This document shows, piece after piece, positions 4,169-44,744 of a stretch of DNA of 58,793 bases. Both the position numbers and the translations under genes were made by a program. Below the pieces are notes generated by a model. The model was not told the DNA's origin. It worked only from the letters and a program-made list of their open reading frames with translations, and searched no databases. The DNA is taken from assembly GCA_002368955.1 (NCBI GenBank), contig DFDY01000125.1:20049-78841 (forward strand), given 5' to 3'. Position 1 is the stretch's first letter, and every line of letters begins with the position of its first letter. Source of the stretch: Bacteroidales bacterium UBA3816. GTDB taxonomy: Bacteria; Bacteroidota; Bacteroidia; Bacteroidales; P3.

Positions 4169-4210
4169 GATAAATAAAATTTAGATTGGTTAATAAAAAG
4201 TGTTTTCTTG

Positions 4211-4713: not shown

Positions 4714-4735
4714 AATTCATTTTATTTAGTAGTTC

Positions 4736-5639: not shown

Positions 5640-5675
5640 TTTTTCTTCCTTTCTGTTTGTTTGTTATATTTTAGT

Positions 5676-6244: not shown

Positions 6245-6337
6245 AGTGTATTATTTTTCCGTATTTGTGTTTTTTGTTGTATATTTGTATTCGTTTTGTA
6301 TTCGTTTTGTGGTGCAAAAATAATAAAAATTTCAATT

Positions 6338-6742
6338 ATGCAAGATAAAAAAGAACGAAAAATTGATGAAATTAAATTAAGATTATTACAATTTGCTGAA
6401 CATCAAGGAATACCAAAGGGGGATTTTTATAAAAAAATATCCGTCCCTCAATCAAATTTTGGTGGAAAAAGTATGGAAAGTAGTCTTTCTTCAGCAAAAA
6501 TAAGCGAAATTTTGATTATATTTCCTGAGCTTTCTGCTGATTGGCTTTTGCTCGAAAAAGGCGAAATGCTCCGGAAAAACAACCTAAAAAACATGGCTGT
6601 GGCCTCTGCACCCCAAGCTAATGCCAGCAATGGCGACATGTCAATCCAGGCACCCGCCGAACTGCTAGCCCTCCTCACCAGCCAACAGGAAACAATCAAG
6701 TCCCTATCCCGCACAATAGAGCATTTAGCCACAGAAAAATAA
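6338..6742 (+). CDS. HTH transcriptional regulator, phage-repressor-like
   Basis: Start moved to ATG 6338 (MQDKKERK...). N-terminal HTH followed by the ADWLLLEKGEML signature common in Bacteroidales phage/element repressors. Divergent from the replication operon. Confidence 0.7.
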   Translation: MQDKKERKIDEIKLRLLQFAEHQGIPKGDFYKKISVPQSNFGGKSMESSLSSAKISEILIIFPELSADWLLLEKGEMLRKNNLKNMAVASAPQANASNGDMSIQAPAELLALLTSQQETIKSLSRTIEHLATEK

Positions 6743-6836
6743 TTGTTAATAATAAAAATATAAAGATTATGTCTAGCAATTCTAAATCAACCATTATTTC
6801 TTTGGCAGCCGTTGTACTAAAAGAGGAAAATCAACA

Positions 6837-7274
6837 ATGAGTAAAACACAAGTCAATTTTCAGCACTATAGTTTGGTTAAGACAACCATTAAGGATAAGG
6901 TTAAAGAAGAAGCACCATTTGTCGAGGTCGGCGATTTGCTCGAATTTATATCCTACAAGGATAAGAAAGACCGCAAGTTCAACTTAAAGAACAACAAGAT
7001 TTGTTTCTTAGAGGTTCTAAACATAAAAGAGTACGAAAGGTACCTAGTGTATTATGGTATTTTTGCCGTAGCCAAAAGAGACTACAGGCCACCAATTATA
7101 GACACTGAGGAACTAACCGAAAGAGACAATCCAAGAAGCATGAAGGAGGGTGACAAAGACCGCGTTTATTTCGCTCTAAAAATCGAACTGAACGAGAGAC
7201 CTCTGGTTTCGCTGATTTTACAGAGAACTAGTTCCCGTTTCAATTCCAATAGTTTCAAGAATTACCTTACCTAG
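6837..7274 (+). CDS. Hypothetical protein (145 aa), AT-rich cargo; may be the N-terminal half of a gene split by an in-frame TAG
   Basis: ORF in the same frame as 7287..7733, separated only by TAG (7272-7274) plus 4 codons. Confidence 0.5.
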   Translation: MSKTQVNFQHYSLVKTTIKDKVKEEAPFVEVGDLLEFISYKDKKDRKFNLKNNKICFLEVLNIKEYERYLVYYGIFAVAKRDYRPPIIDTEELTERDNPRSMKEGDKDRVYFALKIELNERPLVSLILQRTSSRFNSNSFKNYLT

Positions 7275-7286
7275 TTTTTCAGAGAG

Positions 7287-7733
7287 ATGTACCCAGACGA
7301 AACCTCTTCGGCCATCAGAGTGGATGTTCAAATGTGCAACAGCTTTTTCACAGAAATGCAACGGATGAAAAGAGCTTCCGCTATAGAGGTGAGCTTTGAT
7401 AAGAAAATACTGACTGACAAGTTTTCTTCATTCAGTAAAGACATTATTCATGTCGAGAATAACGTCAAGGTCTCTGTCAAAGCAAAGAGAAAGAAGAATA
7501 TTGAAGAGATGGCTATGGATGCTGCCAATCACATGCATGGAGATAACGAAGACAGCATAACCAATGTCTTTGTGAAGGGATATGACGAGGATGACCACGA
7601 AATGGTCGTAGATATGCAGAAATTGTTCCGCATATCGTCAGATAAGGTTGAGAAGTACGATGGACCGGACGGAACTGGTGAGTTGAATAGTAGGGATATG
7701 TTTAGCCTGCTGTTGGATTATGCGGCCATGTAG
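7287..7733 (+). CDS. Hypothetical protein (148 aa), AT-rich cargo; possible C-terminal half of the split gene
   Basis: Same frame as 6837..7274 (start positions differ by 450 nt); acidic C-terminal region. Confidence 0.5.
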   Translation: MYPDETSSAIRVDVQMCNSFFTEMQRMKRASAIEVSFDKKILTDKFSSFSKDIIHVENNVKVSVKAKRKKNIEEMAMDAANHMHGDNEDSITNVFVKGYDEDDHEMVVDMQKLFRISSDKVEKYDGPDGTGELNSRDMFSLLLDYAAM

Positions 7734-7738
7734 ACGGC

Positions 7739-8254
7739 TCAGTCTTGTTTTGCCTTAAGCACGAGATACAGATGTAGGGCCACTTCGATTGTCTGGCAGA
7801 TGCAGTAGGTCAATACCATTACCAGGACAAGTACAATGGCGTATGAAGAAAAGATGGTTTTATAGTCAAAGAGCAAAGCAATGAGGGACAAAAGAAGCCC
7901 GAAAGCTGTGCAGAAAGTGGTCCAGGTGATGTCGGCCACAAGAAGGTCGAAAAGCGACTTTTCTTTGCCAAGTGACGTTACTTCTATCGGAGTCTTCTTT
8001 GTCCTGTTAATGTTCTCATTGTTCGAAGACACCAAGAGCGCAAGAACGGCAATTAGGAAGCCAAGTAGAATACCGAGTATGTTGCTGGAAGTACCCATGA
8101 AGGTGAGAACCTTTTTCAGGACAGAAACACCACCATAGCGAAGAATGAAAAAAGCAGTTGCAGATAGGAATAGAGGTATCAACATAGAACGAATAAAATG
8201 TTTTAATCCGTTGAGTTTGAAATAGTCATATAATAAAACAATTACATTTCCCAT
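7739..8254 (-). CDS. Small integral membrane protein (about 4 TM helices), AT-rich cargo
   Basis: Hydrophobic segments LIPLFLSATAFFIL, ILGILLGFLIAVLALLV, WTTFCTAFGLLLSLIALLF and YAIVLVLVMVLTY. Start is uncertain: ATG 8254 lies only 4 nt from a TAnnTTTG box, and ATG 8185 is an alternative. Confidence 0.55.
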   Translation of the reverse strand: MGNVIVLLYDYFKLNGLKHFIRSMLIPLFLSATAFFILRYGGVSVLKKVLTFMGTSSNILGILLGFLIAVLALLVSSNNENINRTKKTPIEVTSLGKEKSLFDLLVADITWTTFCTAFGLLLSLIALLFDYKTIFSSYAIVLVLVMVLTYCICQTIEVALHLYLVLKAKQD

Positions 8255-8333
8255 GTTGCAAAAGTACACAAAAAAAAATAATAAATATATTACCACGGAA
8301 ACCCTACTCCATTTTTAACATATAAAAACAGGT

Positions 8334-8534
8334 GGTTCATGTCCCTTATCGCCGCAATTTTCACAACGTCAATTCTTTGTAACTATTTATAACAAAAGCG
8401 GTTCACGTCCCCCAATTGCGACAATACCGCGTCAAAAAACCCAAAAAATCGTCAATTTTTAAAATATAAACCATTCGCCTCCAATGCCTTACAAATCGAA
8501 AAATAGGGACGTTTCAAGTGAGGGTTCAAGTCCC
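8334..8534 (+). repeat. Three copies of a T-loop-like 12-mer GGTTCAnGTCCC (8334-8345, 8400-8411, 8523-8534)
   Basis: Read directly from the sequence. The third copy is the T-arm of the tRNA-like remnant. CGTCAATT also recurs at 8368 and 8450. Confidence 0.75.
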
Positions 8535-8547
8535 TCCCGGGGTACAA
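8510..8547 (+). other. tRNA 3'-end-like fragment (T-arm plus 3' acceptor strand), putative att core
   Basis: GAGGG-TTCAAGT-CCCTC (8520-8536), then CCGGGGT and a discriminator A. The matching 5' acceptor strand ACCCCGG is absent from the preceding 100 nt, so this is not an intact tRNA. Confidence 0.5.
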
Positions 8548-8548
8548 T

Positions 8549-8575
8549 AAGGTGGTCTGGTGACCGCCTTTTTTG
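8549..8575 (+). terminator. Hairpin plus T-run directly after the tRNA-like remnant
   Basis: AAGGTGGTC-TGGT-GACCGCCTT followed by TTTTTT. Confidence 0.65.
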
Positions 8576-8724
8576 TTTTCTACATATTATCTTATGCGGT
8601 GACCGGTGCCCCAGTCCTTAGCGTAAACTACATTTAGCCCAAATCGGTCATTACGCCGTCTACTGATTAAGTCTCTTTAATGCCATATCAGCATTTCCGG
8701 TATAAGCATAGTGACTGATTTGGG

Positions 8725-8761
8725 GTAAAAATAAAGGAGGGTGCCTTTTTAGACACCCTCC
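8725..8761 (-). terminator. Rho-independent terminator of the 1799-aa gene
   Basis: Minus strand reads GGAGGGTG-10 nt-CACCCTCC followed by TTTATTTTT, 29 nt after the stop. Confidence 0.75.
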
Positions 8762-8789
8762 AAAGTATAAAGGTAAGAGAAAGACGGTC

Positions 8790-11700
8790 CTACCGCACAA
8801 TCAGTTTCTTGACAATGTGAACCTTCGAGCCAGAAATCTGCACAAAGTACATGCCTTGTCGCAGGCCTTTCAGTTGCAACTGTATGTTGCAGCCTTCGTG
8901 ACACTGAGCTGGCAGTTGCATGACTGTGCGTCCGGCCATGTCCATGACCTGCACTGTCAGGTGGTCGTTGACACCTGCGAGGGTGAGTGTGGCAGACTCT
9001 TTGGCAGGGTTGGGGTACAGACGGGCGCTTAGACCTTCCTGTGCTCTGTCGATTGCCGTTGCGTTAAATGTTATCTTACACCGATCGCTCCAGATGCTGA
9101 AGGAGTTTTCGGCGCATTGTGTCCGCACATAGACATCGTATTCCTCTTCGGGGTTCAGCCCTTCGATGCGGTAGAAGTTGTCGGTGATGCCATCAACGGT
9201 GGTTCCGCCGTCGGTGTCGAAGTGCTGGAGGCCGTACTGAAGCTGATAGGGGCCGCCCTGTCCCTGCCACCGAATCATCGCCACGCCTCTCTCTTGGTCC
9301 AATATTTCGCTTTCTACATCCCAGACGGGCTCACACGACATGGTGGTGAAGGTGATGATGTTTTGGCTCCAGTTGCCGGGCATTCCGTCACACAGGCTGC
9401 GTATCTTGGCTCGGTAGGTGACGTCAGGGTCGAGTCCTTCCACCGTGAAGGGGCTTTGGGTGACGGTGAAACTGCGGTTGTAGGCGAGGTTGAAGACGTT
9501 GATTTCCCACGCGCTGCCGTTGCCGCTCCAGCTGAAGGTGGCCGAGGTGTAGCCCTCCTGGTCAAGAGCAAAGTCGGTGGGGGCGGGGCAGCCCTCCGAG
9601 GCGGTCACCACTTGCTGGGTGGTCCAGTGCGAGTTGATGCCGCTGGCGCAATGGTTTCGCAGACCTATGGTGTACACGGTATTGGGCTGCAATCCGCTGA
9701 AGATGTGTTGGGTGCCGCTGGCGGTCACGCCAATCACGTTGTCGTTCCAGGCCTGGTCGGTGATATAGGCTTCCACGGTTCCTTCGGCAATGAAGTCCAC
9801 CACGATGCGGTCGTTCTCCTCGCTCAGGTTGGCAATGATGGGAGCCTGGCAGTCGGCACTGGCCACCACGCCTATACGTAGGCTATCCACGAAGGCATAG
9901 TATCGCCAGTCGGAGCAGTAGTTGATGGCCAGGAACTTGGTTGAGGAGGGGAAGTCGCCGCTGAAGAGTTTCCAGGTGATGCCGTTGGTGGTCAGGGTGT
10001 CGGTCCAGACAAAGTCTTCGGGGCTGTTGCCGGTGACGGAGTAGCCCACCCGCATCTTTTCCTGTCCATACATCATGTCGCTGTAGCGGAAGCGGAAGGT
10101 GAGGCTGTCGGCCGAGTTGAGCATGGGAGAGATGAGATACTGGTTGTAGTCGCCCGTGCGGTTGTAGGAACTGAAACAGAAACTGGCACTGCCGGCGTAG
10201 GCCCTGTCGGTGCTGTGGCTCATACGGTTGGGGTTGCCCGGGGCTTTGAGTACTGTGAAACAGATGGCGGGGAATTCGGCCGATTCAAAACTCTCTTCGA
10301 TGGGTGCGCCTGCCTCGACGGTGTAGGCATCGCAAAGCGTGGTGAAGTTCACCTGGGTGCTGGCCGGTGACGGTTGCCCGCCGGCGCAGTAGCCGTTCAC
10401 AAACAGTTCATAGCGGGTGCCCGAGGCCAGACCTGTCAGTGTCAGGGGGCTGGCATTGGCGTTGATGCGCTGCCAGGGGGCGGTGCCCACGGGGCGGTAG
10501 GTCACCTCATAGTCCAACGCCGAACCCGTCCACGACACGGTGGCCGATGTGGGCGAGGTGACATTGACCGTCACGTTGCGGGGCCGCTGGCAAGGCGAGG
10601 CCCCCACACAGGCGGTGAACAGCTCGTAGCCGCTTGCGGACAAGCCGCTATGCGCCACAAACTGAATGGTCAAGGCTCCTGTCTCTGAGGTCAGGGCCAC
10701 ACCCAGAGACTCGGGGCCGTAGGTGGAACTGACCGAGTAGAGGAGGGTGCCGCTAGTGCCTTCGCCCTCATAGATGCGCAGGGTGTCGCCGCCCCATGGG
10801 CAGAGGTCCACGGTGCCGCCCACTATCTGCAAGGCATGGGTGCTGTCGGTGGGACGGATGACGAGGGTTGAGTTGGCCATGTGGTTGTAGTCGTGCTGCA
10901 TTCCGCCGTGGTCGTAGACTATCAGTCCGCATCCCGTCACGGTGTCGGAGCCCACAAAGGGCATCACTACGCTGCCTGCCGCAAAGTCCAACGAGCGCCA
11001 AGCACTCTCACCCATGTCGCACAGGGTTTTCACATATATCGTGTACTTCCCGCCTGTGGTCAGTGGGGGCAGGGAGTAGAAGGTGTCGGTCACCACGGCG
11101 TTGCCAGTGGCCATAGACACGTTGGTGCCCACGGTGTCCCAGGCCAACTGCCAACGGCTGGCATGGCTGGGATTGTTCCAGCTGACCACTATATTGGAGG
11201 CATTCAGGAGGTTGTGGGCCACTATTTGGGTGGCTGGCAGGCAGCCCACGGCTTCACCCACCGTGATGTCGTCCACCACGGCTTCCAGTCCCACCGCCTT
11301 ATGGGCCAAAACAATGTGGTTGCCATAGCCACTGTAGTCTCTTAAGTCATATCTCAGCCATACGTAGCGCGAAAGCGACTGCTGCTCGTCGGTGAGGGTG
11401 TCCAGCCAGTCGATGAAGGTGCCGCCATCGTCAGTCACGCCCACCATGATGCCTTCGCCCTCGCCAATGGGGCTCATGAGGGCCCGCAGGTTGATTTCGA
11501 GGCGGTTGACAGGATATTCAAATTCGGGCAGCACGGCGGCGCGAATGCCGCTGGTGGGCTGCCAGTAGAGGCCGCCGAAGCGGTGGTCCACCACCCCACG
11601 GCTGTAGTTCCAGCAGGGAGGCATCACCCCGTTGGCATAGCTGTCGAAATTCTCTGTATAGGGCACTTGTACCCGGCCGCAGTTCGTCACGGCATTAGTC

Positions 11701-14189
11701 TCCTCCCAGAGGGTGTCACCCTGGCACAGGGCTCCCACGCGAATCGCATAGTGAGTGGCGGGGCTAAGGCCGGCAATGGTGTGACTGGTACCGGTGGTGC
11801 TGCCAGCCGAGATGTAGGTTGAGGCAGTGAGGGGGCGATACTGCACCAGATAGCCCGTGGCGGGCAGCCCCTCTTCTATCCAAGTGAGCGTAAGGCTGGT
11901 AGAGTCGGCTTCCACATCCACCACCATCGGGGCCAGGCAGTCGGACACTTGGCAGTCGGCCAAGAAACGAACATCCACAGCCCCTTGCAGTACCGTGGAG
12001 CCGAACATGGAACCGGGGTTGGCCGGCGAGATGGGGGCAAAGCTGTACCACATCACCGTGGCGTCATAGGGGGTCGTGTGGTAGCACCATTCGGCCGGAC
12101 TCAGGGAGAACTGCGAACTGCTGTGGTTCACCGCCACCACTAGGTTGCTCAGCGTGTCGCGCACAAAGGGAGTGTCGAAACGAATGATTTGCCATCCTGC
12201 CTCGCCAGGGTTGATCACATAGTCCGTCGCCATGGCTGTCAGCCCGCTCAGTGGAACATAACTCGTCCCGCTCAGGCTGTTCAGGGCGGTGTTGCCCATG
12301 TAAAGAGTGATTCCTAGCGGTTCGTTCACACCCGTCGAAGTGCGGTAGGCAATGCCCCGGATGGTGTCGATGTTTGGCATTTCGCTTGTGCGGTATAAAG
12401 TCTGGGCATAGCTGCAGTTGAGGTTTGTGTTGACGAAATAGACCGAACTGGCCGTGCTGCCGTCGCCCGCCACCTCGCTGCATGAGTTGGTCATGAAGGT
12501 GTAGGTCGCGCTGTTGGCCGTGTCGTTCTGGTCGTCGGTCAGGCATATGCTGTTGATGTAGGCCGTGTAGCTGTGGCCAGGGGTCAGACCGGTCAGCACC
12601 ACACTGCTGGTATTCACCAGGGTGTCAAACATCGCAATGGTGGGACTCTCTTGGTCATACAGCCGCACCCATGCCCCCTGGGCGGGGCTGCCGTTGAGGT
12701 TGTCGTACTGCCAGCCGAGCAGGGCCGCAGTGTAATGGACGTTCTCCAGCCGCACATCCGTCACGCGGGCGCAGGTCATGGCCGTGGTGAAGGGGGCAGA
12801 AGCCTTGTAGCTCGAAGTGTCCTGGTCGCATGCCGACCGCACCCAGGCATAATAGGTAGTGCCCTGGTCCAGGCCGCGCAGCACCACCGTGGTGTCGCCC
12901 ACCATGTCGTAGAAAGTGGCACCAAAAGCGTTGTTCTCGCGCGAGTAATAGACATAGTAGCCCTGTGCCGAATCGCCTGCCGAAGGCCATGAGAGGCGTG
13001 CCCAGCGTGAGCCCACGCTGTCCACATCGACCCGCTCGGGTCGGCGGCAGCCGTTGTCGTGCGTAATGCTCAGGTCGTCCACAAAGCCGTTGCCCATCAT
13101 CACATCGGTGCCCTTGAAGAAGAAGGCCACATAGTAGGAGGCCGTGGGGTCGAGGTTGGCAGTGCTGAACTCATAGTCGCGCCAGACATTGTCCATCGTG
13201 CGCACGTCCACCATCGGTATGAAGGTGGAAGTGTCGTGGAGGTCGGTCATAACGCCCACCCGTAGGCGGGCGGCAAACAGATAGAAACCGCCCAAGTCCA
13301 CGCCGTTCTCCAGCTTGGCACGGAAGTTCACAATGATTTCGTTGCCCGGCACCGGCACCAAGGGAGTGGTCACGATGTTCCAACCCGCGGCGCCGAAGAC
13401 CAGGTCCAGCGAGTCGGAGTAAGCCTCCTCGTCCAACACCTGCGGATAGCTGCCGAAAGTGGTGATAGCATTCCAGCACGCGGGCAACTCGCCGAGAGCC
13501 TCGCGGTCGAAAGTGTTGTAGTAGGGCAGCTGCATGGGCGGACACGAGGTGCGGAAACTACTCTCCGTCACGTCCGACGTGTCGCCCGAGCCGCACAGCG
13601 CGCGCACGCCCACCGTGTAGTCGTTGTTCATTGAGAGTCCGGCGAAATAGTAGCTGGGCACGTTTGTCGTTGCCACCATCGCGCCGTTCAGATAGACCAG
13701 CCAGTACGACTCGTCGCCCACCGGCGTCCAGGTCACCATGGCATAAGTGCTGTCGGGCTGGCAGGTTAGGCCAATAGGGTGCACACAACTGGGGCACGCA
13801 GGGAACCCCTCTGCCACCACCGTGCCGCTGGTCACGCCACCCGGCATCACCGAGGCAATCTCGCTCCCGTCGCCATTGATAATGCTAAAGGAAATTTCGT
13901 AGTCCAGCGGGCCGGCAATCCACACGAAGCGCATGGTGTCTCCCGTGCATACAGGCACATTATAGCTACCCTCGTAACCCGACGAGAGCGATACCGTGCC
14001 GCGCAGCACCGTGTCCTGCCACACCTGGAGCGATCCCCCGTTCCAGCCGTCGCCGAACATGTCGCCGCACACGACAGTCACCAGGCAGGCCGACTCGCCC
14101 GGAGGGCACTGGGCTTCGACCTGCCCACAGAACATCAGCAATGCCATCCATAGTGGCATCCACCTTAGTTTGAATTTACTTTTTCTCAT
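8790..14189 (-). CDS. Giant secreted T9SS cargo protein (Fn3-like repeats, LPxCW modules, CUB-like module, type A Por C-terminal sorting domain)
   Basis: Signal peptide MRKSKFKLRWMPLWMALLMFCGQVEAQ. Repeated Fn3-like units. C-terminus LYPNPAKESATLTL...GMYFVQISGSKVHIVKKLIVR is typical of the T9SS type A CTD. 1799-aa uninterrupted ORF. Confidence 0.85.
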   Translation of the reverse strand: MRKSKFKLRWMPLWMALLMFCGQVEAQCPPGESACLVTVVCGDMFGDGWNGGSLQVWQDTVLRGTVSLSSGYEGSYNVPVCTGDTMRFVWIAGPLDYEISFSIINGDGSEIASVMPGGVTSGTVVAEGFPACPSCVHPIGLTCQPDSTYAMVTWTPVGDESYWLVYLNGAMVATTNVPSYYFAGLSMNNDYTVGVRALCGSGDTSDVTESSFRTSCPPMQLPYYNTFDREALGELPACWNAITTFGSYPQVLDEEAYSDSLDLVFGAAGWNIVTTPLVPVPGNEIIVNFRAKLENGVDLGGFYLFAARLRVGVMTDLHDTSTFIPMVDVRTMDNVWRDYEFSTANLDPTASYYVAFFFKGTDVMMGNGFVDDLSITHDNGCRRPERVDVDSVGSRWARLSWPSAGDSAQGYYVYYSRENNAFGATFYDMVGDTTVVLRGLDQGTTYYAWVRSACDQDTSSYKASAPFTTAMTCARVTDVRLENVHYTAALLGWQYDNLNGSPAQGAWVRLYDQESPTIAMFDTLVNTSSVVLTGLTPGHSYTAYINSICLTDDQNDTANSATYTFMTNSCSEVAGDGSTASSVYFVNTNLNCSYAQTLYRTSEMPNIDTIRGIAYRTSTGVNEPLGITLYMGNTALNSLSGTSYVPLSGLTAMATDYVINPGEAGWQIIRFDTPFVRDTLSNLVVAVNHSSSQFSLSPAEWCYHTTPYDATVMWYSFAPISPANPGSMFGSTVLQGAVDVRFLADCQVSDCLAPMVVDVEADSTSLTLTWIEEGLPATGYLVQYRPLTASTYISAGSTTGTSHTIAGLSPATHYAIRVGALCQGDTLWEETNAVTNCGRVQVPYTENFDSYANGVMPPCWNYSRGVVDHRFGGLYWQPTSGIRAAVLPEFEYPVNRLEINLRALMSPIGEGEGIMVGVTDDGGTFIDWLDTLTDEQQSLSRYVWLRYDLRDYSGYGNHIVLAHKAVGLEAVVDDITVGEAVGCLPATQIVAHNLLNASNIVVSWNNPSHASRWQLAWDTVGTNVSMATGNAVVTDTFYSLPPLTTGGKYTIYVKTLCDMGESAWRSLDFAAGSVVMPFVGSDTVTGCGLIVYDHGGMQHDYNHMANSTLVIRPTDSTHALQIVGGTVDLCPWGGDTLRIYEGEGTSGTLLYSVSSTYGPESLGVALTSETGALTIQFVAHSGLSASGYELFTACVGASPCQRPRNVTVNVTSPTSATVSWTGSALDYEVTYRPVGTAPWQRINANASPLTLTGLASGTRYELFVNGYCAGGQPSPASTQVNFTTLCDAYTVEAGAPIEESFESAEFPAICFTVLKAPGNPNRMSHSTDRAYAGSASFCFSSYNRTGDYNQYLISPMLNSADSLTFRFRYSDMMYGQEKMRVGYSVTGNSPEDFVWTDTLTTNGITWKLFSGDFPSSTKFLAINYCSDWRYYAFVDSLRIGVVASADCQAPIIANLSEENDRIVVDFIAEGTVEAYITDQAWNDNVIGVTASGTQHIFSGLQPNTVYTIGLRNHCASGINSHWTTQQVVTASEGCPAPTDFALDQEGYTSATFSWSGNGSAWEINVFNLAYNRSFTVTQSPFTVEGLDPDVTYRAKIRSLCDGMPGNWSQNIITFTTMSCEPVWDVESEILDQERGVAMIRWQGQGGPYQLQYGLQHFDTDGGTTVDGITDNFYRIEGLNPEEEYDVYVRTQCAENSFSIWSDRCKITFNATAIDRAQEGLSARLYPNPAKESATLTLAGVNDHLTVQVMDMAGRTVMQLPAQCHEGCNIQLQLKGLRQGMYFVQISGSKVHIVKKLIVR

Positions 14190-20791: not shown

Positions 20792-20799
20792 TATTTTTG
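20792..20799 (+). promoter_or_regulatory. -7 promoter box TATTTTTG upstream of riboswitch copy 1
   Basis: TAnnTTTG about 60 nt before the aptamer. Confidence 0.5.
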
Positions 20800-20857
20800 C
20801 ACCCGATTTGGTCATCCAAAAAACGAGGTTTGTTTGCTGTAGACAAATGAAATCTAG

Positions 20858-21022
20858 TTTTTTGGCTGTTAAAAGGGAATTAGGTGAAAGTCCTGAACAG
20901 TCCCGCTGCTGTGAGCTCCAAAACAAACCGCAGCCCAGAAAAGGAAAAGAAAGTCACTGTGTGTCGGCAAGGCACATGGGAAGACGGGCCCCGCGGGGAG
21001 CAAGTCAGAATACCTGCCAAGT
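20858..21022 (+). promoter_or_regulatory. Cobalamin riboswitch, copy 1 (orphan); boundaries approximate
   Basis: AAAAGGGAAUUAGGUGAAAGUCCUGAACAGUCCCGCUGCUGUGAGC ... GUCACUGUGUGUCGGCAAGGCACAUGGGAAGAC ... AGUCAGAAUACCUGCCAAG (B12 box). Confidence 0.85.
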
Positions 21023-21372
21023 CAATTTTTTTTGAAGCTCTCGAGGAAGAAGCATAGAAAAAGCGTCAAGGTCAAGCAAGGCGGAACAGTGCCCGTCCCC
21101 ATTGTGCCGATTCGCATCTTCACTTTGTCCCCAAGTGTTTCAAAGTATTATTGAGGAACAGGAGATTGCTGTTCCCCTGGAGTGCTGAGTGTTTGGTTAA
21201 TTATTGGTTAAATAAATTGTTTTATTGCTACTATCATACGGTCCCCCTCCGGTGCGGAGGGGGCTGCGACAGGGCTCAAAAGGTCAGCACCCACCCAACG
21301 AGAAAGAGAGAAATGCGGCATTAGTTTCCTTATATTATTATTTTGTCTCATATCATCCATAATGCCGAGCGG

Positions 21373-21401
21373 CGGCCCCAAGGTCTGGGGCCGTTTTTTT
21401 T
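21373..21401 (+). terminator. Intrinsic terminator closing the riboswitch-1 transcript
   Basis: CGGCCCCA-AGGTC-TGGGGCCG followed by T8. Confidence 0.8.
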
Positions 21402-21546
21402 GTGGCGGCCTGGGGGTGTGTGGCGGCCAGGGCGGTCGGCAGGCGATGGGTGTGGATGGGGGGCAACGAGGTAGTGCGATAAATATTTATGGGTCGAATA
21501 TGTCCGGAGAAAAGTATAATTCTTTTTGCGTATTAAATATTTTTGC

Positions 21547-21554
21547 TATCTTTG
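21547..21554 (+). promoter_or_regulatory. -7 promoter box TATCTTTG upstream of riboswitch copy 2
   Basis: TAnnTTTG about 35 nt before the aptamer. Confidence 0.55.
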
Positions 21555-21584
21555 CATCTCAATTTGGTCGCCAAGGGTGGCGGT

Positions 21585-21772
21585 TAGTTGGCTGAGGCTA
21601 AGCTGACTGCTGTCTACGGCGTTAAAAGGGAATCGGGTGAAAATCCCGAACAGTCCCGCTGCTGTAAGCTCAAAAAACAGCCCGAATCCCCCATAAGGAG
21701 TCCACTGTGCGGTGCAATAGCCGCATGGGAAGGCAGGGGAGGAGGGGAGCAAAGTCAGAAGACCTGCCAAGT
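21585..21772 (+). promoter_or_regulatory. Cobalamin riboswitch, copy 2, in the leader of the 1735-aa gene; boundaries approximate
   Basis: AAAAGGGAAUCGGGUGAAAAUCCCGAACAGUCCCGCUGCUGUAAGC ... UCCACUGUGCGGUGCAAUAGCCGCAUGGGAAGGC ... AGUCAGAAGACCUGCCAAG (B12 box). Confidence 0.9.
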
Positions 21773-22014
21773 TGAAAGATTTGTTGAACGCTTTCGAGGA
21801 AAGGCGAGGCAAAGAGTTGTGTGTGTGTGGCGATGGGTGACAGAGGAGTTCTAATAGGCCGAATTCTGGGTGTGGCAGGTGCCACAGGTTGTTCACTTTT
21901 TTTCGCGCGCACATTTCCCTCCCCCTTGAGTTTCTGTAGAGAGCTATTTATTAACCCGTCGCCCACATGAGTCGGGCGGCACAAAACAATTAATTTAAAA
22001 TAGTTTCTAAAACT

Positions 22015-25000
22015 ATGCTCAAAAAACTAACAACGCTATGTGCGGGTCTGCTGATGGCAGCAGGTCTGCACGCTCAGGGCCAGGACAACAACAGGCTGTA
22101 CGGAAACCCGCAGCAGGCTGGCCAGGGCATCTACAGGACGATGCAGCAGGGTTCCAAGGGTATTTCTTTCTCGACCGACGACATCGAGTTCTGGTGCGGC
22201 ACCGGCTCCAACGAGGGCACGGTGATCATTGCCTGGGACGACAGCGGCACCGAAACCGCCTACGTGTGGGGCGTGCGCTGGAATGGTTCCAACACCGCCC
22301 TGGGCATGATGGATTCCATTGCTGCCCACGACAGTCGGCTGACGTTCAGCTACACCAGCAGCCTCATGGGCAACGTGCAGTACAGCGACGGCACCACCAC
22401 CCTCAGCAGCTCCACTAACGGCTGGTGCTACTACCTCAACGGCAGCTGGGCAATGAACGCCTACGGCAACCAGCCGGTGGCCGACGGCGATGTGATTGAG
22501 GTGAGTGCCACCTGCATGTTCACCATGACCACGGCCACCGCCGTCGCCGACCCCAACCCCTCGGCCCCCCACGGCAGCACCCGTGTGAGCGTGGGCAACG
22601 GCACGGTGGGTACCAACCTCACCCCTTTCTGCACCTACTACAACCACGGCACCACCGAGTTGCTCTACACGGCGTCTGAGCTCAACTACTGGTCAGGTGT
22701 GGTCGACACCCTTTGGTTTGAGGCCAACTCGGGCGGCAACATGCCCTACTCTCACCTGAAGATATACATGGGCACTACCTCTGCCACACAACTCACCTCA
22801 TGGGAGTCGCTGGACAATCTTCAGCTGGTCTACAGCAACGATTACGGCTACCTTACCAGCACTGCCGGGTGGGAGCCCTTTGTGCTCAACACCCCTTACT
22901 ACTACAACGGCACCGACAACCTCGTGGTGGTCACCTGCCGCCAGGGCACCATCTACAGCTCCAACCAGACCTACCGCTATACCAGCACTGACGGCCGCGC
23001 CCTCTATCTCCAGAGCGACGACAGTTCCAGCTTCGGCACCCTGGCCGGCGCCGCCCGCAACACCCCCACCACTACCCTCTACCGCACCAATCTGCGACTG
23101 AGCATCGACACCCTCGGCACCATTCCCTGTCCCCGACCGGACAGCTTGGCTGTGGACAGCCTCAGCCCCTACTACGCCCACCTGAACTGGCAGACCGACC
23201 GTCCCGCGGGCGGATGGGCGCTCACCTTCAGCCCTGCCGTCGGCGGCACCACCGACACCGTGGTGAGCGTGGCCGGCATTGATCTGAACGGCCTCGTCCC
23301 CTCCACTGAGTACACTGTCACTGTCCGCACCATCTGCGACGCGGGTGACACCAGCCGTGCCGTCAGCATCGACTTCGTGGCCCCCTGCCTGGCCCTGACT
23401 GCCGCCGACCTGCCCTATGTTGAGGACTTCAACGGCTATGCCATGGGGTCGGACGAAGCCATCAGCCCCTGCTGGAACAAAGGCACCAACTACAGTTCCT
23501 ACAACTATCCCTACACCTATCGCAGCACCAATATCGACGGTTCCAACTGCCTCTACTTCTATGCCTACCGACCCTCGTCCTCCTATTCCACGCGTGTCTA
23601 CAGCTATGCCGCCCTGCCCGCGTATGACGGCGACCTTAGCGGCCTGATGCTGCAGTTTGACATGCGCAGCTACAGCGGCACCAGCAGCAATCCCGACCGC
23701 TATTGCAGCCGCATGATAGTGGGCGTGATGTCCGACCCCACCGACACCTCCACCTTCGAGCCGGTCGACACGGTCAGCATTGCCACCCTCAACACCGTCA
23801 TGCACGCCCAGGTCTATTTTGAGAACTACAGCGGCAGTGGCCGCTATGTGGCCCTGATGGACCTGCCCATCGACTCGGCCGACATGCCTGTGCGCGGCAC
23901 TCTGCCCACCTATAGCTGGATTTATGTGGACAACGTTGTCCTTGCCCCCATCCCCACCTGCCGCCCGGTGAGCGACCTGACGGTCCAGGCCCTCGACCAC
24001 AACAGCGCCACCCTCTCGTGGCATGAGAACGGCAACGCCACCAGTTGGGTCATTGGCTACGGCAGCACCAGCCTTGAGGTGAGCACCAATCCCTACACCC
24101 TCACAGGCCTCGCCGGCAGCACCGCCTACACTATCGGTGTGGCCCCCCTTTGCTCCGCCATCGACACCGGCGAGGTGAGCACCGTCAGCATCACCACTGA
24201 CTGCGACCCCGTGCCAGTGCCTTTCGTCGACGACTTTGAGGGCTATGGCGCAGGTAGTTCCGCCGTGATGAACACCTGCTACCGCAAGGGCACCAACTAC
24301 TCCACCGCCTATCCCTATCCTGCCAACTCCCACACCACGGCCACCAGCAGCCGCTGCCTCTCCTTCTATGGCTCCGCCAGCTGTTACAGCTACCTGGCCT
24401 TCCCAGCCATGGACACGGCCATCAGCCAGCTGGTCCTCTCCTTTAAGGCCCTCAAGACCAACGAAGCCTACGGAGTCTTCTATGTGGGCACCATGTCCAA
24501 TGCCAACGACCTGAGCACCTTTGAGCCCTACGACACCGTGGTGGTCAACGGTCTGGACCAGTGGGAGGACAAGGACGTGGTCTTTGCCAACTATAGCGGC
24601 ACCGCCACCCATATTGCCATCCTCACCCGCGCCAGTGCCACCGGCGCAACGCAGTATGCCTTCGTTGACGATGTGATGATAGACATTGTGCCCACCTGCT
24701 TCAATGTTTCCGACCTGCATTCAGTGGACAGCCTCGCCACTTCCTCCAGCCTCACGCTGAGCTGGACCGACCATAGCGCGGCCATCGGCTATCAGATTGG
24801 CTACAAGAGGCACTCCTACGACCCCTTCACCTATGTCACCGCCACCGCTAACCCCTACACCCTTGGCGGCCTGCTGCCCAACACCGACTATATCCTCTCC
24901 GTGACTCCGGTCTGCGCCGTGGGCGACACTGCCTGGACGCGTCTCTGCACCGGCCACACCACCTGCGCCGACACCACCCCCTTGCCCTACGCCGAGAACT

Positions 25001-27222
25001 TCAACGGCGTGGCAGGTGCCACCAACAGCTCCTCCTATTATCTGCCCATCGGGGGGCGCTATGCGCTGCCAGCCTGCTGGACAGTGGCAGTCCTCGACCC
25101 CGCTGGCGGCACTTCTGGCTCCAACGCCCCGCAGGTGTTTGTCAGCACCAATAGCTCCTACAGCTATAACGGCAGCCAGTTCCTGGTCATGCGTGGCTAC
25201 AGCAACACCAAGCCCGCCCTTGCCGCCCTGCCCCTCATGAGCGATGCCGTGCAAAACCTTCAAATCGACTTCGACTATCGCCAGAATTCTGCCTCCTATG
25301 GCCAGTTGGAACTGGGCGTGATGACCGATGCCGACGACACCACCACATTCTTCCCATTACAAGTACTTCCCCGTACCACCAGCTATGTCCACGTGCAGCA
25401 CGACTTCACCCTCGACTCCACCATTCCGGTCGGGGCGCAGTATATTGCCTTCCGCCATTGGCAACAGAACAGCTATAGCAGCTACTGCAGCTATATCGAC
25501 AACGTTTCCGTCACCGTGGCACCCCTTTGCAAGCCTGTACACAATCTGGCTGTGAGCATCAGTAGCGACACTGCCGACATCACTTGGACCAGCACCGTCA
25601 GCGGTGCCACCTTCGAAGTGGGCTATGGCCTTGCTGGCACCGATACCGACAGCCTCACCCTCGTCGGAAACATCTCCGACACGGCTGCCCAGCTGGTGCT
25701 CCCCAATGGCCTTTACGACATCTATGTGCGCACCAACTGTGGCATCGCCTCCAGCCCTTGGGTGGGACCCGTCAGTGCCGCCACAGGCCTCTTCGTGATG
25801 GACGGCACCGACACCCTCAACGCCTGCGGCTATGTGCTGGTGGACCATGCGGGCCTCGATGCCAACTATGGCAACAACCGCCGCGATACCGTGGTGTTCC
25901 TCCCCGCCGACGGCTGCACCACCTATAGAATCAGCGGCCACGTCAGCACCGAGAACAACTACGACTATGTCTACCTTTTCGACACCCCCGACGGCGCCTA
26001 CAGCAGCCGTTACTGCGGTGAGGCCGACATTAACTTCACCTCCTCTACCGGCTTCCTCAAAGTGGTCTTTACCTCCGACGGCAGCTCCGTGCGTGCCGGT
26101 TACATGCTGGGCGTTACCTGCCAGAACCTTCCCGTGGCCATGGCCGACAGCCTTCAGGCAACCGTGGTGGGCGACAGTGCTGCCACACTCAGCTGGGCAG
26201 GCTCGGCCACCACATGGTTGGTCAGTGTCGACGGTCAGACCGACACCGTCCTTGGCCACAGCCACACATTCACTGGTCTCGACCCCTTGGCCCTGCACAC
26301 CTTTGGCGTGGCATCCATCTGCGGCGCCTCCGACTCCTCCAATTGGGCCACCCTCAGCCTTCGCCTTCGCTATAGTGTCAGTGCCACCGCTTCCGACAGC
26401 ACCATGGGCTCCGTCAGCGGCAGCGGCGTCTATCCTTTGGGCGAATATGTAGAGCTTACTGCCACGGCTGCTCCGCACTACCATTTTGTCATGTGGGACG
26501 ACAGCCTTACCACCAATCCCCGCACCGTTTATGTCAGTGGCGATAGGACTCTTGTGGCCATCTTTGCTGCCGACAGCTACACCGTCAGCGCCACCAGCGC
26601 CGATGAAACAATGGGCATCGTCAGCGGCGGCGGCATCTACCCCTATGGCGACACCGTCACCCTCACCGCCACCCCCGCCGAACATCACCATTTCGTCATG
26701 TGGAACGACGGCCTGACCGAACCCGTCCGCACCCTGGTGGTCCTGGGCAGTGCCTCCTATGTGGCCCACTTCGCCCTAGACAGTGTCACCGTTTCTGCCA
26801 CCAGCACCAATCCCGACCAGGGCTTTGTGACCGGCAGCGGCACCTATGCCTATGGCGCCACCGTCACCCTCACTGCCATTTCTCATCCCGGCTATCATTT
26901 TGCCAGCTGGAGCGACGGACTCACCGACAGCGTCCGCACCTTTGTGGCCACCGCCGATGTGCAGCTCTCTGCCACCTTTGACGCTAACCGTCCGAACGGT
27001 ATCGACCCAAGCCCGGCGGATGCCATCAGCATAAGCCTCGAGGGATTGGACATCGTTGTCAATGGAGCTGAAGGGCAGACAGTGACCATCTTTGACCAGA
27101 CGGGCCGCATCCTTGTCAGCGAAATCTGGTCCCTGGGCAAACGTCACCGCATGCCTGCAGCAGGCGTATACCTTGTACGCGTCGGTCACCACCCCGCCCA
27201 AAAGGTGGTCGTGGTCAGATAG
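22015..27222 (+). CDS. Giant secreted T9SS cargo protein with a DUF4430-like N-terminal domain, Fn3-like/LPxCW modules, a CUB-like module, 3 InlB-B-repeat-like units and a type A CTD
   Basis: Signal peptide MLKKLTTLCAGLLMAAGLHAQ. NGWCYYLNGSWAMNAYGNQPVADGDVIEV motif (nt 22417-22503). C-terminus ...GQTVTIFDQTGRILV...AGVYLVRVGHHPAQKVVVVR. 1735-aa uninterrupted ORF. Confidence 0.85.
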   Translation: MLKKLTTLCAGLLMAAGLHAQGQDNNRLYGNPQQAGQGIYRTMQQGSKGISFSTDDIEFWCGTGSNEGTVIIAWDDSGTETAYVWGVRWNGSNTALGMMDSIAAHDSRLTFSYTSSLMGNVQYSDGTTTLSSSTNGWCYYLNGSWAMNAYGNQPVADGDVIEVSATCMFTMTTATAVADPNPSAPHGSTRVSVGNGTVGTNLTPFCTYYNHGTTELLYTASELNYWSGVVDTLWFEANSGGNMPYSHLKIYMGTTSATQLTSWESLDNLQLVYSNDYGYLTSTAGWEPFVLNTPYYYNGTDNLVVVTCRQGTIYSSNQTYRYTSTDGRALYLQSDDSSSFGTLAGAARNTPTTTLYRTNLRLSIDTLGTIPCPRPDSLAVDSLSPYYAHLNWQTDRPAGGWALTFSPAVGGTTDTVVSVAGIDLNGLVPSTEYTVTVRTICDAGDTSRAVSIDFVAPCLALTAADLPYVEDFNGYAMGSDEAISPCWNKGTNYSSYNYPYTYRSTNIDGSNCLYFYAYRPSSSYSTRVYSYAALPAYDGDLSGLMLQFDMRSYSGTSSNPDRYCSRMIVGVMSDPTDTSTFEPVDTVSIATLNTVMHAQVYFENYSGSGRYVALMDLPIDSADMPVRGTLPTYSWIYVDNVVLAPIPTCRPVSDLTVQALDHNSATLSWHENGNATSWVIGYGSTSLEVSTNPYTLTGLAGSTAYTIGVAPLCSAIDTGEVSTVSITTDCDPVPVPFVDDFEGYGAGSSAVMNTCYRKGTNYSTAYPYPANSHTTATSSRCLSFYGSASCYSYLAFPAMDTAISQLVLSFKALKTNEAYGVFYVGTMSNANDLSTFEPYDTVVVNGLDQWEDKDVVFANYSGTATHIAILTRASATGATQYAFVDDVMIDIVPTCFNVSDLHSVDSLATSSSLTLSWTDHSAAIGYQIGYKRHSYDPFTYVTATANPYTLGGLLPNTDYILSVTPVCAVGDTAWTRLCTGHTTCADTTPLPYAENFNGVAGATNSSSYYLPIGGRYALPACWTVAVLDPAGGTSGSNAPQVFVSTNSSYSYNGSQFLVMRGYSNTKPALAALPLMSDAVQNLQIDFDYRQNSASYGQLELGVMTDADDTTTFFPLQVLPRTTSYVHVQHDFTLDSTIPVGAQYIAFRHWQQNSYSSYCSYIDNVSVTVAPLCKPVHNLAVSISSDTADITWTSTVSGATFEVGYGLAGTDTDSLTLVGNISDTAAQLVLPNGLYDIYVRTNCGIASSPWVGPVSAATGLFVMDGTDTLNACGYVLVDHAGLDANYGNNRRDTVVFLPADGCTTYRISGHVSTENNYDYVYLFDTPDGAYSSRYCGEADINFTSSTGFLKVVFTSDGSSVRAGYMLGVTCQNLPVAMADSLQATVVGDSAATLSWAGSATTWLVSVDGQTDTVLGHSHTFTGLDPLALHTFGVASICGASDSSNWATLSLRLRYSVSATASDSTMGSVSGSGVYPLGEYVELTATAAPHYHFVMWDDSLTTNPRTVYVSGDRTLVAIFAADSYTVSATSADETMGIVSGGGIYPYGDTVTLTATPAEHHHFVMWNDGLTEPVRTLVVLGSASYVAHFALDSVTVSATSTNPDQGFVTGSGTYAYGATVTLTAISHPGYHFASWSDGLTDSVRTFVATADVQLSATFDANRPNGIDPSPADAISISLEGLDIVVNGAEGQTVTIFDQTGRILVSEIWSLGKRHRMPAAGVYLVRVGHHPAQKVVVVR
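26371..26979 (+). repeat. Three tandem coding repeats of about 68 aa (divergent InlB B-repeat-like)
   Basis: YSVSATASDSTMGSVSGSGVYPLGEYVELTATAAPHYHFVMWDD / YTVSATSADETMGIVSGGGIYPYGDTVTLTATPAEHHHFVMWND / VTVSATSTNPDQGFVTGSGTYAYGATVTLTAISHPGYHFASWSD; units start at about 26371, 26575 and 26782. Confidence 0.8.
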
Positions 27223-27237
27223 GAAAAGACTGATTGA

Positions 27238-27618
27238 CTACACTTCCGAAGGAGGGCAGGCGCGAGCGGCCCTCCTTCTTTTATTTCCCCCGGCGGCTAC
27301 AATGCCATAGGATGCTGCCACGAGCGAACGCAGCAGATGCGCCGGGGCGACTGTGGCATCCACGCCAATCCAGTATTTGGACGAACAGTTATAGGGGTTG
27401 CCGATGAAGGAGTGCTGCTCCTTGAGCGATTCGATTTCCTCGGGAGGAGCTTTCAGGTTGACTTGCTCTAGGTGGTTGATGTCAAAAAAGAGGAACATGT
27501 GGCCGTGGGTGTAGAAAGCCAGCACGTCGCGGGCAGCGGCGAACTGCTGGAAGGGAAATTTCTCTTCCACCTCGGGTCCTAACCCGAGGGCATAGTTGCG
27601 GAGTTCTTCAACGTTCAT
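27238..27618 (-). CDS. MmcQ/YjbR family DNA-binding protein
   Basis: MNVEELRNYALGLGPEVEEKFPF...YWIGV pattern typical of the family; 126 aa. Confidence 0.65.
   Translation of the reverse strand: MNVEELRNYALGLGPEVEEKFPFQQFAAARDVLAFYTHGHMFLFFDINHLEQVNLKAPPEEIESLKEQHSFIGNPYNCSSKYWIGVDATVAPAHLLRSLVAASYGIVAAGGNKRRRAARACPPSEV
27249..27286 (+). terminator. Terminator after the 1735-aa gene
   Basis: AAGGAGGGC-11 nt-GCCCTCCTT followed by CTTTTATTT. It overlaps the 3' end of the convergent ORF. Confidence 0.6.
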
Positions 27619-38035: not shown

Positions 38036-38063
38036 ATCTTTGCGGTTTGTGTCATAAAAAATA

Positions 38064-38438
38064 AACGGCAGCCTCATAAGCCGGGTTCTGTCCTGTCGCG
38101 GACGACAGTCTCTATCATCAATCTACTGCCGACGTCGCCGTCGGCCTCTATCAACCTACCCCCCGACAACGGGCGAGCCAGCCCTTCACTGTCGGTATAT
38201 TTGGTCTTTCAACCCATAAGGTTTACCATCGGGCGACATTGCTGCCGCCGGTCGTGGGCTCTTACCCCGCGCTTGCACCCTTACCCGTAGGCGGTTTCTC
38301 TTTCTGTGGCACTCGCTGTCAGCAGGGCGCTTTCCTCCCTGCTGCCTTCCTGTTAGGAAGTATGGTGGCTCGCGTTGCCCGGACTTTCCTCCCGCAGCAC
38401 CCCTAAGGGCTCTGCCGGCGATAGAGTCAGCTGCCGTT
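38064..38438 (-). ncRNA. rnpB: RNase P RNA, bacterial type A
   Basis: Minus strand contains GGGAGGAAAGTCCGGGC, GCCACAGAAA, GGGTAAGGGTGCAAG, GGTAAACC and ACAGAACCCGGCTTA. P1 pairs ACGGCAGC (5') with GCTGCCGT (3'). Confidence 0.9.
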
Positions 38439-39453: not shown

Positions 39454-40320
39454 ATGAATGAGAATTTGAAGAACTACAGCACTCAGCCCGACCCCGAAGT
39501 CTGGAATAGGATAAGCAAAACCTTGCGCCGACGTTATTTCCGTCGACAGGCCTTGGGTGCTTCCATTGGAATGCTGATAGCCGTTGCGGCTGTGGTGGGA
39601 ATTCAGCTGTTGCCATATGACGAGCAGCCGACGCTGGCCTCGCAGACCTTGCCCGAGGTGGCTCAGTTGACCCCCAATGAGCGGACTGTCGCTCCCCAAT
39701 TGCAGGAGTCTACTGTCCAGGCCGTTCCGGCCCAGCAGCAGTTGCAGGAGCCCGTTTCGGCCACGGTGGCACCGGTGGAGGAATCCCCCGCCCCGAAGAC
39801 GGTTGCCGTTCCGGTTGCTCCGGTGATTAAGCCTCTGACTGTGGCCAGTCAGGCCCTCCCTGCTCGGATGGAGGAGCCAGCCCCACAAGTGTTTGTTGCC
39901 GAGGTTCCCTCGGAACACACAGCGCTTTCGAGTGAAGACCCACAGCCGGTTGTGGCCGAAAGTGAGGCCGCGGCTACTCCTGCCGTCGCTCCCTCACCAA
40001 AGGTCACTAGCCCCAACGGCATGATAGAGGACACGATTCTTTGGGTGCCCAACGCCTTTGCGCCAGCCTCGGACGACCCCAACATTACCACTTTCCGTGC
40101 CCATCTCAACAAGCCGGAAGTGAGCATCCTCAATTACCGCATCACCATTTTCAACCGCTCGGGTCATCAGGTGTTCCACAGCACCGACATCAATCAGGTC
40201 TGGGATGGCACCTACAAGGGCCGCCCCCTGCCGCAAGCTGGATATGTATACGTCATCTATTATGTCGACAAGGATGGCCTTACACATCAGCGTAAAGGCA
40301 CCGTTGCGTTGATTAGGTAG
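39454..40320 (+). CDS. Single-pass membrane protein (anti-sigma-like N-terminus) with a C-terminal T9SS type B sorting (gliding-motility CTD) domain
   Basis: Starts 4 nt after the sigma gene. TM helix ALGASIGMLIAVAAVVGIQLL, then a P/A/Q/V-rich linker. C-terminus VPNAFAPASDD...ITIFNRSGHQVF...WDGTYKGRPLPQAGYVYVIYYVDKDG...KGTVALIR. Confidence 0.75.
   Translation: MNENLKNYSTQPDPEVWNRISKTLRRRYFRRQALGASIGMLIAVAAVVGIQLLPYDEQPTLASQTLPEVAQLTPNERTVAPQLQESTVQAVPAQQQLQEPVSATVAPVEESPAPKTVAVPVAPVIKPLTVASQALPARMEEPAPQVFVAEVPSEHTALSSEDPQPVVAESEAAATPAVAPSPKVTSPNGMIEDTILWVPNAFAPASDDPNITTFRAHLNKPEVSILNYRITIFNRSGHQVFHSTDINQVWDGTYKGRPLPQAGYVYVIYYVDKDGLTHQRKGTVALIR

Positions 40321-42797: not shown

Positions 42798-44744
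<1,947 letters not shown>

Follow-up and report, generated by a model that had tools for sequence, protein, structure and literature searches.

A cobalamin riboswitch precedes the gene for a giant, predicted type IX secretion cargo protein with a transcobalamin-like, putatively corrinoid-binding head in Bacteroidales

The members of gut and rumen communities compete for vitamin B12 (cobalamin), and in rumen Bacteroidales the production of propionate is gated by it. The surface B12 binders of Bacteroidota that have been characterised so far are all lipoproteins, and they have been studied in human-gut Bacteroides. The extracellular accessory binders BtuG, BtuH, BtuJ and BtuK of B. thetaiotaomicron are under the control of cobalamin riboswitches (PMC13616437) and possess beta-propeller, DUF4465 jelly-roll or BtuH-specific folds (PMC13616437, PMC12751083, PMC8941943). 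Here we describe a stand-alone gene for a protein of 1735 amino acids (aa), which is located in a stretch of 58,793 nucleotides (nt) from Bacteroidales bacterium UBA3816 (contig DFDY01000125.1, in the following "the window"), is preceded by a cobalamin riboswitch (RS2) and encodes a predicted cargo protein of the type IX secretion system (T9SS). The likeness to the Btu proteins lies in this kind of control and in relatives of the window protein that are encoded in the same type of btuB/btuG/btuF operon (PMC13616437). In contrast to BtuG, BtuH, BtuJ and BtuK, the window protein has no lipobox but a T9SS sorting domain and a predicted head of the SLBB beta-grasp type, and Pfam searches gave no match to DUF4465 or DUF5074. 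An earlier note on this DNA, made from the sequence alone, had proposed that export route and architecture differ from those of the known B12 binders. This holds, as we are dealing with neither a lipoprotein nor a relative of the four Btu proteins.

The beta domains of transcobalamin, intrinsic factor and haptocorrin share with the head of the window protein the predicted fold, including a clade-specific hairpin after the helix. Unlike them, the head has no alpha/alpha-toroid partner, carries an extension of approximately 45 aa and occurs in a bacterial T9SS setting, where its relatives often form tandem arrays. Secreted or wall-anchored DUF4430/SLBB proteins from Firmicutes and archaea also combine transcobalamin-like domains with signal peptides and were predicted to be B12 scavengers in 2007 (Burroughs et al. 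2007, PMC1796856), and a structure from Ruminococcus gnavus (3u7z) matches the head best, both in fold and by sequence profile. These proteins have Gram-positive anchors and links to CbiO/CbiQ-type transporters, whereas the family of the window protein belongs to Bacteroidales and is linked to T9SS, riboswitches, BtuB and BtuG. With its classical aptamer and B12 box the gene resembles the members of the RF00174 regulon, which comprises btuB, cob genes and genes for isozymes (e.g. nrdDG), and btuB and nrdDG are also part of the regulon of its relatives. What differs is the target, which is a single giant T9SS cargo gene, and the presence of a paralogous orphan riboswitch (RS1) upstream. Neither the class of function nor the type of regulation is without precedent. 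Novel features are the route of export, the occurrence of this binding module in the phylum, its tandem arrays and the giant architecture with a single head. Our literature searches retrieved no paper that links DUF4430/SLBB domains, T9SS and cobalamin riboswitches.

With a confidence somewhat better than even, we regard the gene as a cobalamin-repressed gene for a T9SS-secreted, putative corrinoid-capture protein. Our confidence is held to this level because we infer the corrinoid binding of the family from sequences and structural models. The coordinates of the relevant features are collected in Table 1.

Table 1. Features of the window around the gene behind RS2, with their positions in the window, and a paralogous protein
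Feature	Position (nt)	Strand	Basis and remarks
Paralogous T9SS protein, 1799 aa	8790-14189	-	Five fn3 stretches; Por_Secre_tail 45.9 bits
Second cobalamin riboswitch aptamer (RS1)	20818-21035	+	Rfam RF00174, 81.0 bits, E 2.1e-18
Non-coding stretch after RS1	21036-21400	+	Ends in strong intrinsic terminator 21371-21400 (10-bp stem, T8; terminator scan)
Promoter-like elements of RS2	TTTG 21525-21528; TAnnTTTG 21538-21545 and 21547-21554	+	Read from sequence
Cobalamin riboswitch aptamer (RS2)	21559-21775	+	Rfam RF00174, 85.4 bits, E 1.1e-19; precedes the open reading frame 22015-27222
Hairpin CGCUUU-CGAGGA-AAGGCG	21789-21806	+	Directly 3' of the aptamer, beyond the extent of the Rfam model
Anti-B12-box TGGCAGGT (21873-21880), small hairpin, 11-nt spacer, T7 (21897-21903)	21873-21903	+	Sequence, folding
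GAGAGC, candidate alternative partner of the 5' arm of the conserved hairpin (GCUUUC)	21939-21944	+	Paired in minimum free energy fold
Open reading frame, 1735 aa, candidate RS2-controlled T9SS cargo protein	22015-27222	+	Signal peptide aa 1-20 (22015-22074); no lipobox
Transcobalamin-like (SLBB/DUF4430-related) domain, aa 47-181, putative corrinoid-binding head	22153-22557	+	Profiles, AlphaFold2, Foldseek
Scaffold, aa 187-1450	22573-26364	+	Fn3 modules alternating with unassigned modules of ~170-190 aa; Pfam fn3, 3 stretches
CUB-like module, aa 1258-1368	25786-26118	+	Top PDB sequence match: cubilin CUB (3kq4_B), E 4.5e-4
Three InlB B-repeat (Flg_new_2) domains, aa 1451-1653	26365-26973	+	PF18998, 89.6 bits, 3 stretches
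C-terminal T9SS sorting domain, aa 1671-1735	27025-27219	+	Profile comparison; curated models sub-threshold
Terminator-like hairpin GAAGGAGGGC/GCCCTCCTTC, then T-rich TTTTATTT	~27248-27286	+	Read from sequence; overlaps 3' end of yjbR

The riboswitch had been claimed at 21585-21772, and the covariance model of Rfam confirms it with a match well above the gathering score of 31.5 bits, in which the B12 box AGTCAGAAGACCTGCC could be read at 21753-21768. Upstream of the aptamer not one but two of the claimed TAnnTTTG boxes are present. TAnnTTTG is the Bacteroidota-type promoter consensus, and the boxes between 21525 and 21554 are promoter-like and might constitute the promoter of RS2. The aptamer and the start of the open reading frame are separated by a leader of 240 nt. 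An identical 1735-aa protein is encoded on four rumen metagenome contigs.

The conservation of the riboswitch among relatives points in the same direction. A scan of reference genomes with an alignment of seq­uences from seven proteins yielded 39 loci, all from metagenome-assembled genomes (MAGs) of rumen, horse, deer or chicken gut Bacteroidales, and in every one of the 37 loci with upstream sequence a cobalamin riboswitch was detected 60-300 nt before the start codon (nhmmer); the Rfam gathering score was passed by all 14 loci that were re-tested. In a second scan, directed at a more distant subfamily, 80 metagenome loci were found, and the riboswitch is present in 63 of the 67 that have at least 400 nt of upstream sequence. 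Over both scans, about 100 of 104 related loci thus retain a riboswitch, which answers the question of the earlier note whether orthologs retain it. It is also retained, together with the architecture of the window protein, by the orthologs L019 and L024 (Candidatus Colimorpha merdihippi; horse-faeces MAG), which share 43-46% identity with the window protein over the aligned length (BLASTP). As a separate observation, locus L028 contains a divergent second cobalamin riboswitch (5154-5344, minus strand, 99 bits), which is directed towards genes for an acetyl-CoA hydrolase/transferase and a porin-like protein.

In about ten loci (among them L008, L013, L015-L017, L020, L022, L030 and L034) the genes nrdD and nrdG directly follow the family gene on the same strand, and there is no second riboswitch between them. 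The nrdDG genes encode the class III ribonucleotide reductase, which is independent of B12, and the gene order suggests a joint B12-starvation operon of the SLBB gene and nrdDG. One could also assume that the riboswitch lineage mainly serves nrdDG or other genes of the B12 regulon and that the SLBB gene was simply inserted behind it, so that the switch would be incidental or a relic without a meaningful role in the genome of the window. The single riboswitch in front of SLBB gene and nrdDG, as well as the gene-less RS1, would fit such a scenario. We nevertheless consider it highly improbable, since the riboswitch is kept whatever gene follows, L019 and L024 retain it without possessing nrdDG, and RS2 itself has a high score, an intact B12 box and a conserved accessory hairpin.

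The head of the protein had been proposed to be a DUF4430/transcobalamin-like domain, and a structure prediction had been suggested. The AlphaFold2 model, calculated from an alignment of 43 sequences, is confident (predicted local distance difference test, pLDDT, 94.9; predicted template modelling score, pTM, 0.90); an earlier run with only three aligned sequences reached a pLDDT of 39 and was discarded. In the model a helix (residues 49-59) is directly followed by a beta-hairpin (strands 63-68 and 71-78). A beta-hairpin that follows the helix is the defining insert of the transcobalamin-like clade within the SLBB beta-grasp superfamily (PMC1796856). Comparison of the model to the PDB with Foldseek placed the DUF4430 structure 3u7z first, while ranks 3-19 are occupied solely by structures of transcobalamin, haptocorrin and intrinsic factor, one of which (5np4) shows the beta domain in isolation with bound cyanocobalamin. 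For ranks 1-19 the probability is 0.92-1.00. When normalised to the small targets, the template modelling scores (TM-scores) amount to 0.52-0.58, and the sequence identity is 9-18%. The nearest folds in the PDB are consequently those of DUF4430 and the transcobalamin group, as had been expected.

At the level of sequence profiles the assignment is less straightforward. The DUF4430 model (PF14478) covers aa 113-163 of the window protein with 18.9 bits (E 0.0021), which is below the cut-off of 23.8 bits, although the C-terminal W-x-Y-x-x-N-G...G-D motif of the head aligns to it. A profile search of the head against the PDB retrieved 3u7z with an E-value of no better than 0.13. The sole match of a phmmer search of the head against the PDB, a levanase, is at chance level and was rejected as a relative. 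Relatives, however, do exceed the DUF4430 cut-off (P0003 with 37 bits, P0060 with 25.1 bits and the protein of locus L119 with 33.5 bits), and 8 of 34 complete family proteins match the model at E ≤ 0.001. The proposed assignment thus fails for the window protein at the Pfam cut-off but is supported by its relatives and by the Foldseek ranking. Judged from the model, aa 47-181 form a divergent beta-grasp domain of the transcobalamin-like SLBB/DUF4430 kind. Because of the modest Foldseek E-values and the low identity, sequence and model together characterise it as a distant relative of DUF4430 and not as a member at the Pfam level. The head comprises approximately 135 aa, and its N-terminal extension of about 45 aa (W-x-G-x-G-S-N ... 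A-W-G-x-R-W) is strongly conserved in the family.

The family to which this domain belongs is large. In an exhaustive profile search we obtained 829 representative clusters with E ≤ 0.001, of which 64 reach E ≤ 1e-30, and most of the family proteins listed contain two to seven tandem copies of the domain. The database names of the short relatives listed are all "hypothetical protein". One family match (P0179) originates from a Fibrobacteria bacterium, so the domain may extend beyond Bacteroidales. Many family proteins also possess a conserved domain of approximately 240 aa (motifs DFAVFENSF, LELAFVEVSSDG) between the SLBB repeats and the T9SS tail, for example at 6862-7599 in locus L003; this domain has no sequence match in Pfam or the PDB and is absent from the window protein.

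Two recurrent gene orders in the metagenome loci connect the family to B12 uptake, and relatives of the head domain are often encoded in such operons. In the first one, the riboswitch is followed by two SLBB genes (~397 and ~326 aa), a DUF5074 gene and a Peripla_BP_2 gene; in the second one, by a DUF5074 gene, an SLBB gene and a gene for a TonB-dependent receptor. The receptor matches BtuB1 of B. thetaiotaomicron (8blw_A) with an E-value of 2.4e-189, and the Peripla_BP_2 protein is a BtuF-type (BtuF-like) binding protein. The DUF5074 protein can be regarded as BtuG-like, since it matches the non-BtuB chains of the BtuB complexes 8p97, 8p98, 8bmx and 8blw with E-values down to 1e-55 (for these entries see PMC10404256). 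The family members in these operons are small and consist of little beyond SLBB repeats and the C-terminal sorting domain (CTD). As BtuB-, BtuG- and BtuF-like genes co-occur with family genes behind the riboswitch, the gene content indicates that the family is embedded in genuine B12-uptake operons. The window gene is a family member that stands alone, and its product combines a single head with a giant scaffold. The statement that no BtuB gene is adjacent therefore has to be restricted: it applies to the window gene and the subfamily around it and cannot be extended to the entire family.

These operons are also relevant for a different use of bound corrinoids. It is conceivable that the protein is released by T9SS and sequesters corrinoids as a competition or storage factor, without a dedicated hand-off to BtuG and BtuB. 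Such a role would share the evidence for binding and secretion with the capture function that we favour, and it would suit a stand-alone gene without a transporter partner as well as relatives with up to seven candidate binding domains per chain. In other subfamilies, however, the family genes are co-transcribed with homologs of BtuB, BtuG and BtuF, which argues for uptake, and repression by intracellular B12 suits an acquisition that is driven by need. We therefore judge sequestration to be distinctly unlikely.

Behind the head, most of the window protein is scaffold. The Fn3, CUB-like and three InlB-B modules that had been named before were all recovered, with three fn3 and three Flg_new_2 stretches in Pfam searches and the cubilin match of the CUB-like module. 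Cubilin is the receptor of intrinsic factor-B12. Neuropilin CUB domains match this module as well, and the likeness to cubilin is probably generic CUB similarity. Sequence searches of the modules aa 186-380 and aa 461-662 against the PDB found nothing, and a self-BLAST of the window protein revealed no internal repeats at E ≤ 1e-3. The scaffold is 23-27% identical to the 1799-aa T9SS protein encoded nearby, which possesses neither an SLBB head nor a riboswitch.

This composition has to be weighed, since a scaffold of Fn3, CUB-like and InlB B-repeat modules, as is typical of adhesins, accounts for about 85% of the protein, and a headless paralogous scaffold protein is encoded in the vicinity. 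The protein might thus be a surface adhesin induced by B12 starvation, whose SLBB head binds something other than a corrinoid, for instance a glycan or the surface of a partner that produces B12. In this case the riboswitch would only restrict the expression to times of B12 scarcity, e.g. for the attachment to producers or feed particles. SLBB domains of other clades are known to bind polysaccharides (PMC1796856), and the subfamily of the window protein is not adjacent to btuBG. On the other hand, the structural matches are specific to the transcobalamin-like clade, down to the hairpin insert, and the small family members within btuB/btuG/btuF operons possess hardly more than SLBB repeats and a CTD. 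For these reasons we regard an adhesin function as unlikely.

The export signals are consistent with secretion. As judged from the sequence, the N-terminus (MLKKLTTLCAGLLMAAGLHA|QGQ) resembles a type I signal peptide and lacks a lipobox: T-T-L precedes Cys9, and this residue is not conserved among relatives. A type A T9SS CTD had been claimed for the C-terminus. By curated cut-offs this claim could not be upheld, because TIGR04183 reached 14.7 bits (cut-off 23) and DUF6383 at aa 1670-1733 reached 20.6 bits (Pfam cut-off 23.7), while PF18962 was not reported. A comparison of profiles, however, supports it: the last 85 residues match the CTD profile of the family with a probability of 95.4% (hhalign, E 1.7e-8). 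This profile was built from 20 CTDs, 19 from family proteins that mostly hit Por_Secre_tail and one from the neighbouring T9SS protein in the window. Among the 34 complete family proteins, Por_Secre_tail (PF18962) was found in 29 and DUF6383 in four. DUF6383 has been described as a putative T9SS targeting domain in PG2216 of P. gingivalis (PMC9722745). Besides the 1799-aa protein with its Por_Secre_tail, a CHU_C gene (39454-40320) is a further T9SS cargo gene in the window, where no core T9SS genes were seen.

Several observations weigh against a corrinoid-capture protein. In transcobalamin, B12 is bound jointly by the beta domain and an alpha/alpha-toroid domain, and the window protein lacks the latter. 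The scores of the window protein for DUF4430, DUF6383 and TIGR04183 are all below the curated cut-offs, and the Foldseek E-values are modest (3e-3 to 9e-2, with TM-scores of 0.42-0.58). The expression platform of RS2 has no canonical terminator. In sequence, the greater part of the protein resembles the scaffold of an adhesin, and neither the window gene nor its closest subfamily is adjacent to btuB or btuG. Finally, the SLBB superfamily also contains domains that bind polysaccharides or DNA (PMC1796856).

If the gene nevertheless encodes a corrinoid-capture protein, it might work in the following way. As long as intracellular adenosylcobalamin is plentiful, the aptamer would fold and the leader would shut off expression. 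When B12 becomes scarce, the protein would be exported by Sec and then by T9SS with removal of the CTD, and it would either be anchored via its C-terminus to the outer membrane or be released. T9SS cargo is anchored through the C-terminus after CTD removal, and with such an anchoring the N-terminal head would sit at the outer end of a stalk that is about 1500 aa long and composed of Fn3, CUB-like and InlB-B modules. In this position the head would capture corrinoids and hand them over to a BtuG-BtuB system whose genes lie elsewhere in the genome. In a rumen Bacteroidales relative, the genes beside cobalamin riboswitches were the ones most strongly repressed by cobalamin (PMC11575231).

A wider picture, to which we give slightly less than an even chance, is that rumen and hindgut Bacteroidales possess a so far undescribed outermost tier of B12 capture, consisting of riboswitch-repressed, T9SS-exported "bacterial transcobalamins" with one to seven domains per chain. 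The window protein would be a single-head "fishing-rod" variant with a C-terminally anchored stalk of about 1500 residues, and RS1 might drive a B12-controlled non-coding RNA. If this is true, B12 acquisition would gain both a new route of export and a new binding module, and T9SS would be tied to vitamin scavenging. There would also be a Gram-negative counterpart in which corrinoid binding by a transcobalamin beta domain could be studied without the alpha domain, and the domains of about 135 aa, which are easily expressed, would lend themselves to direct tests.

How the leader of RS2 might act on expression is less evident. The hairpin directly downstream of the aptamer recurs as a motif in 37 of 38 related leaders, and the changes in its stem are compensatory; its position would suit the P13/L13 element of cobalamin riboswitches. 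Further downstream, the segment TGGCAGGT is an exact 8-nt complement of ACCTGCCA (21762-21769), with a predicted duplex of -15.4 kcal/mol. An equally long complement of the B12 box arises in 3% of shuffled leaders. Outside the window such anti-B12-boxes (complements of 7-11 nt) were found in six related loci only, where they lie within a hairpin; the opposite arm of this hairpin imitates the B12 box, and a U/C-rich tract comes next. They are absent from the closest orthologs L019 and L024. The proposed antiterminator/terminator switch is thus supported with respect to the complementarity, but not with respect to the terminator. A canonical terminator at 21871-21903 was rejected, since the terminator scan calls none and the T7 run sits 11 nt from the small hairpin. 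Constrained folds and segment folds of the leader gave no clean terminator/antiterminator pair, and the minimum free energy folds favour other pairings. GAGAGC offers another pairing for the conserved hairpin, and an exact GAAAGC is present 23-67 nt before the ATG in 17 of 38 related leaders. The conserved hairpin, its GAGAGC partner and the 8-nt anti-B12-box are hence candidate moving parts of the switch, as far as the sequence permits such a proposal, and the control might be transcriptional or translational.

The second riboswitch, RS1, was not contained in the earlier note. It lies 740 nt upstream of RS2, is preceded by a separate TAnnTTTG box (20793-20800) and shows a U8 run (21027-21034) directly after P1. 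The cores of both riboswitches are approximately 75% identical, and the similarity extends into the first nucleotides of the leader. In the ~335 nt after RS1 no credible open reading frame was found, only short ones with TTG or GTG start, and a search for the remnant of a family gene in 21031-21420 (blastx, blastn) retrieved identical contigs only. RS1 and RS2 are both present on the independent contigs L042 and L043. Locus L014 contains tandem cobalamin riboswitches, each of which drives its own family member (3695-5249 and 5548-12144), one of 443 aa with two domains and one of 2082 aa with three. RS1 may therefore be the leftover of a deleted paralog, or it may drive a B12-controlled non-coding RNA.

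The window gene is flanked by a divergent gene for an Asp-Al_Ex permease upstream and by the convergent yjbR downstream. It had been claimed to be monocistronic, to be closed by a terminator and to have no adjacent BtuB gene. The first claim is valid and the last one can even be widened, since no genes for BtuB, BtuG or BtuF were found in the window. At the 3' end, however, only a GC-rich, terminator-like hairpin could be read from the sequence. It was not listed by the terminator scan, as its loop of 11 nt exceeds the 8-nt loop limit of the scan. The window lies probably near the chromosomal replication origin; it also contains genes for RNase P RNA class A (38061-38437, 221.5 bits), gyrB (42798-44738) and dnaA (48824-50284), all on the minus strand.

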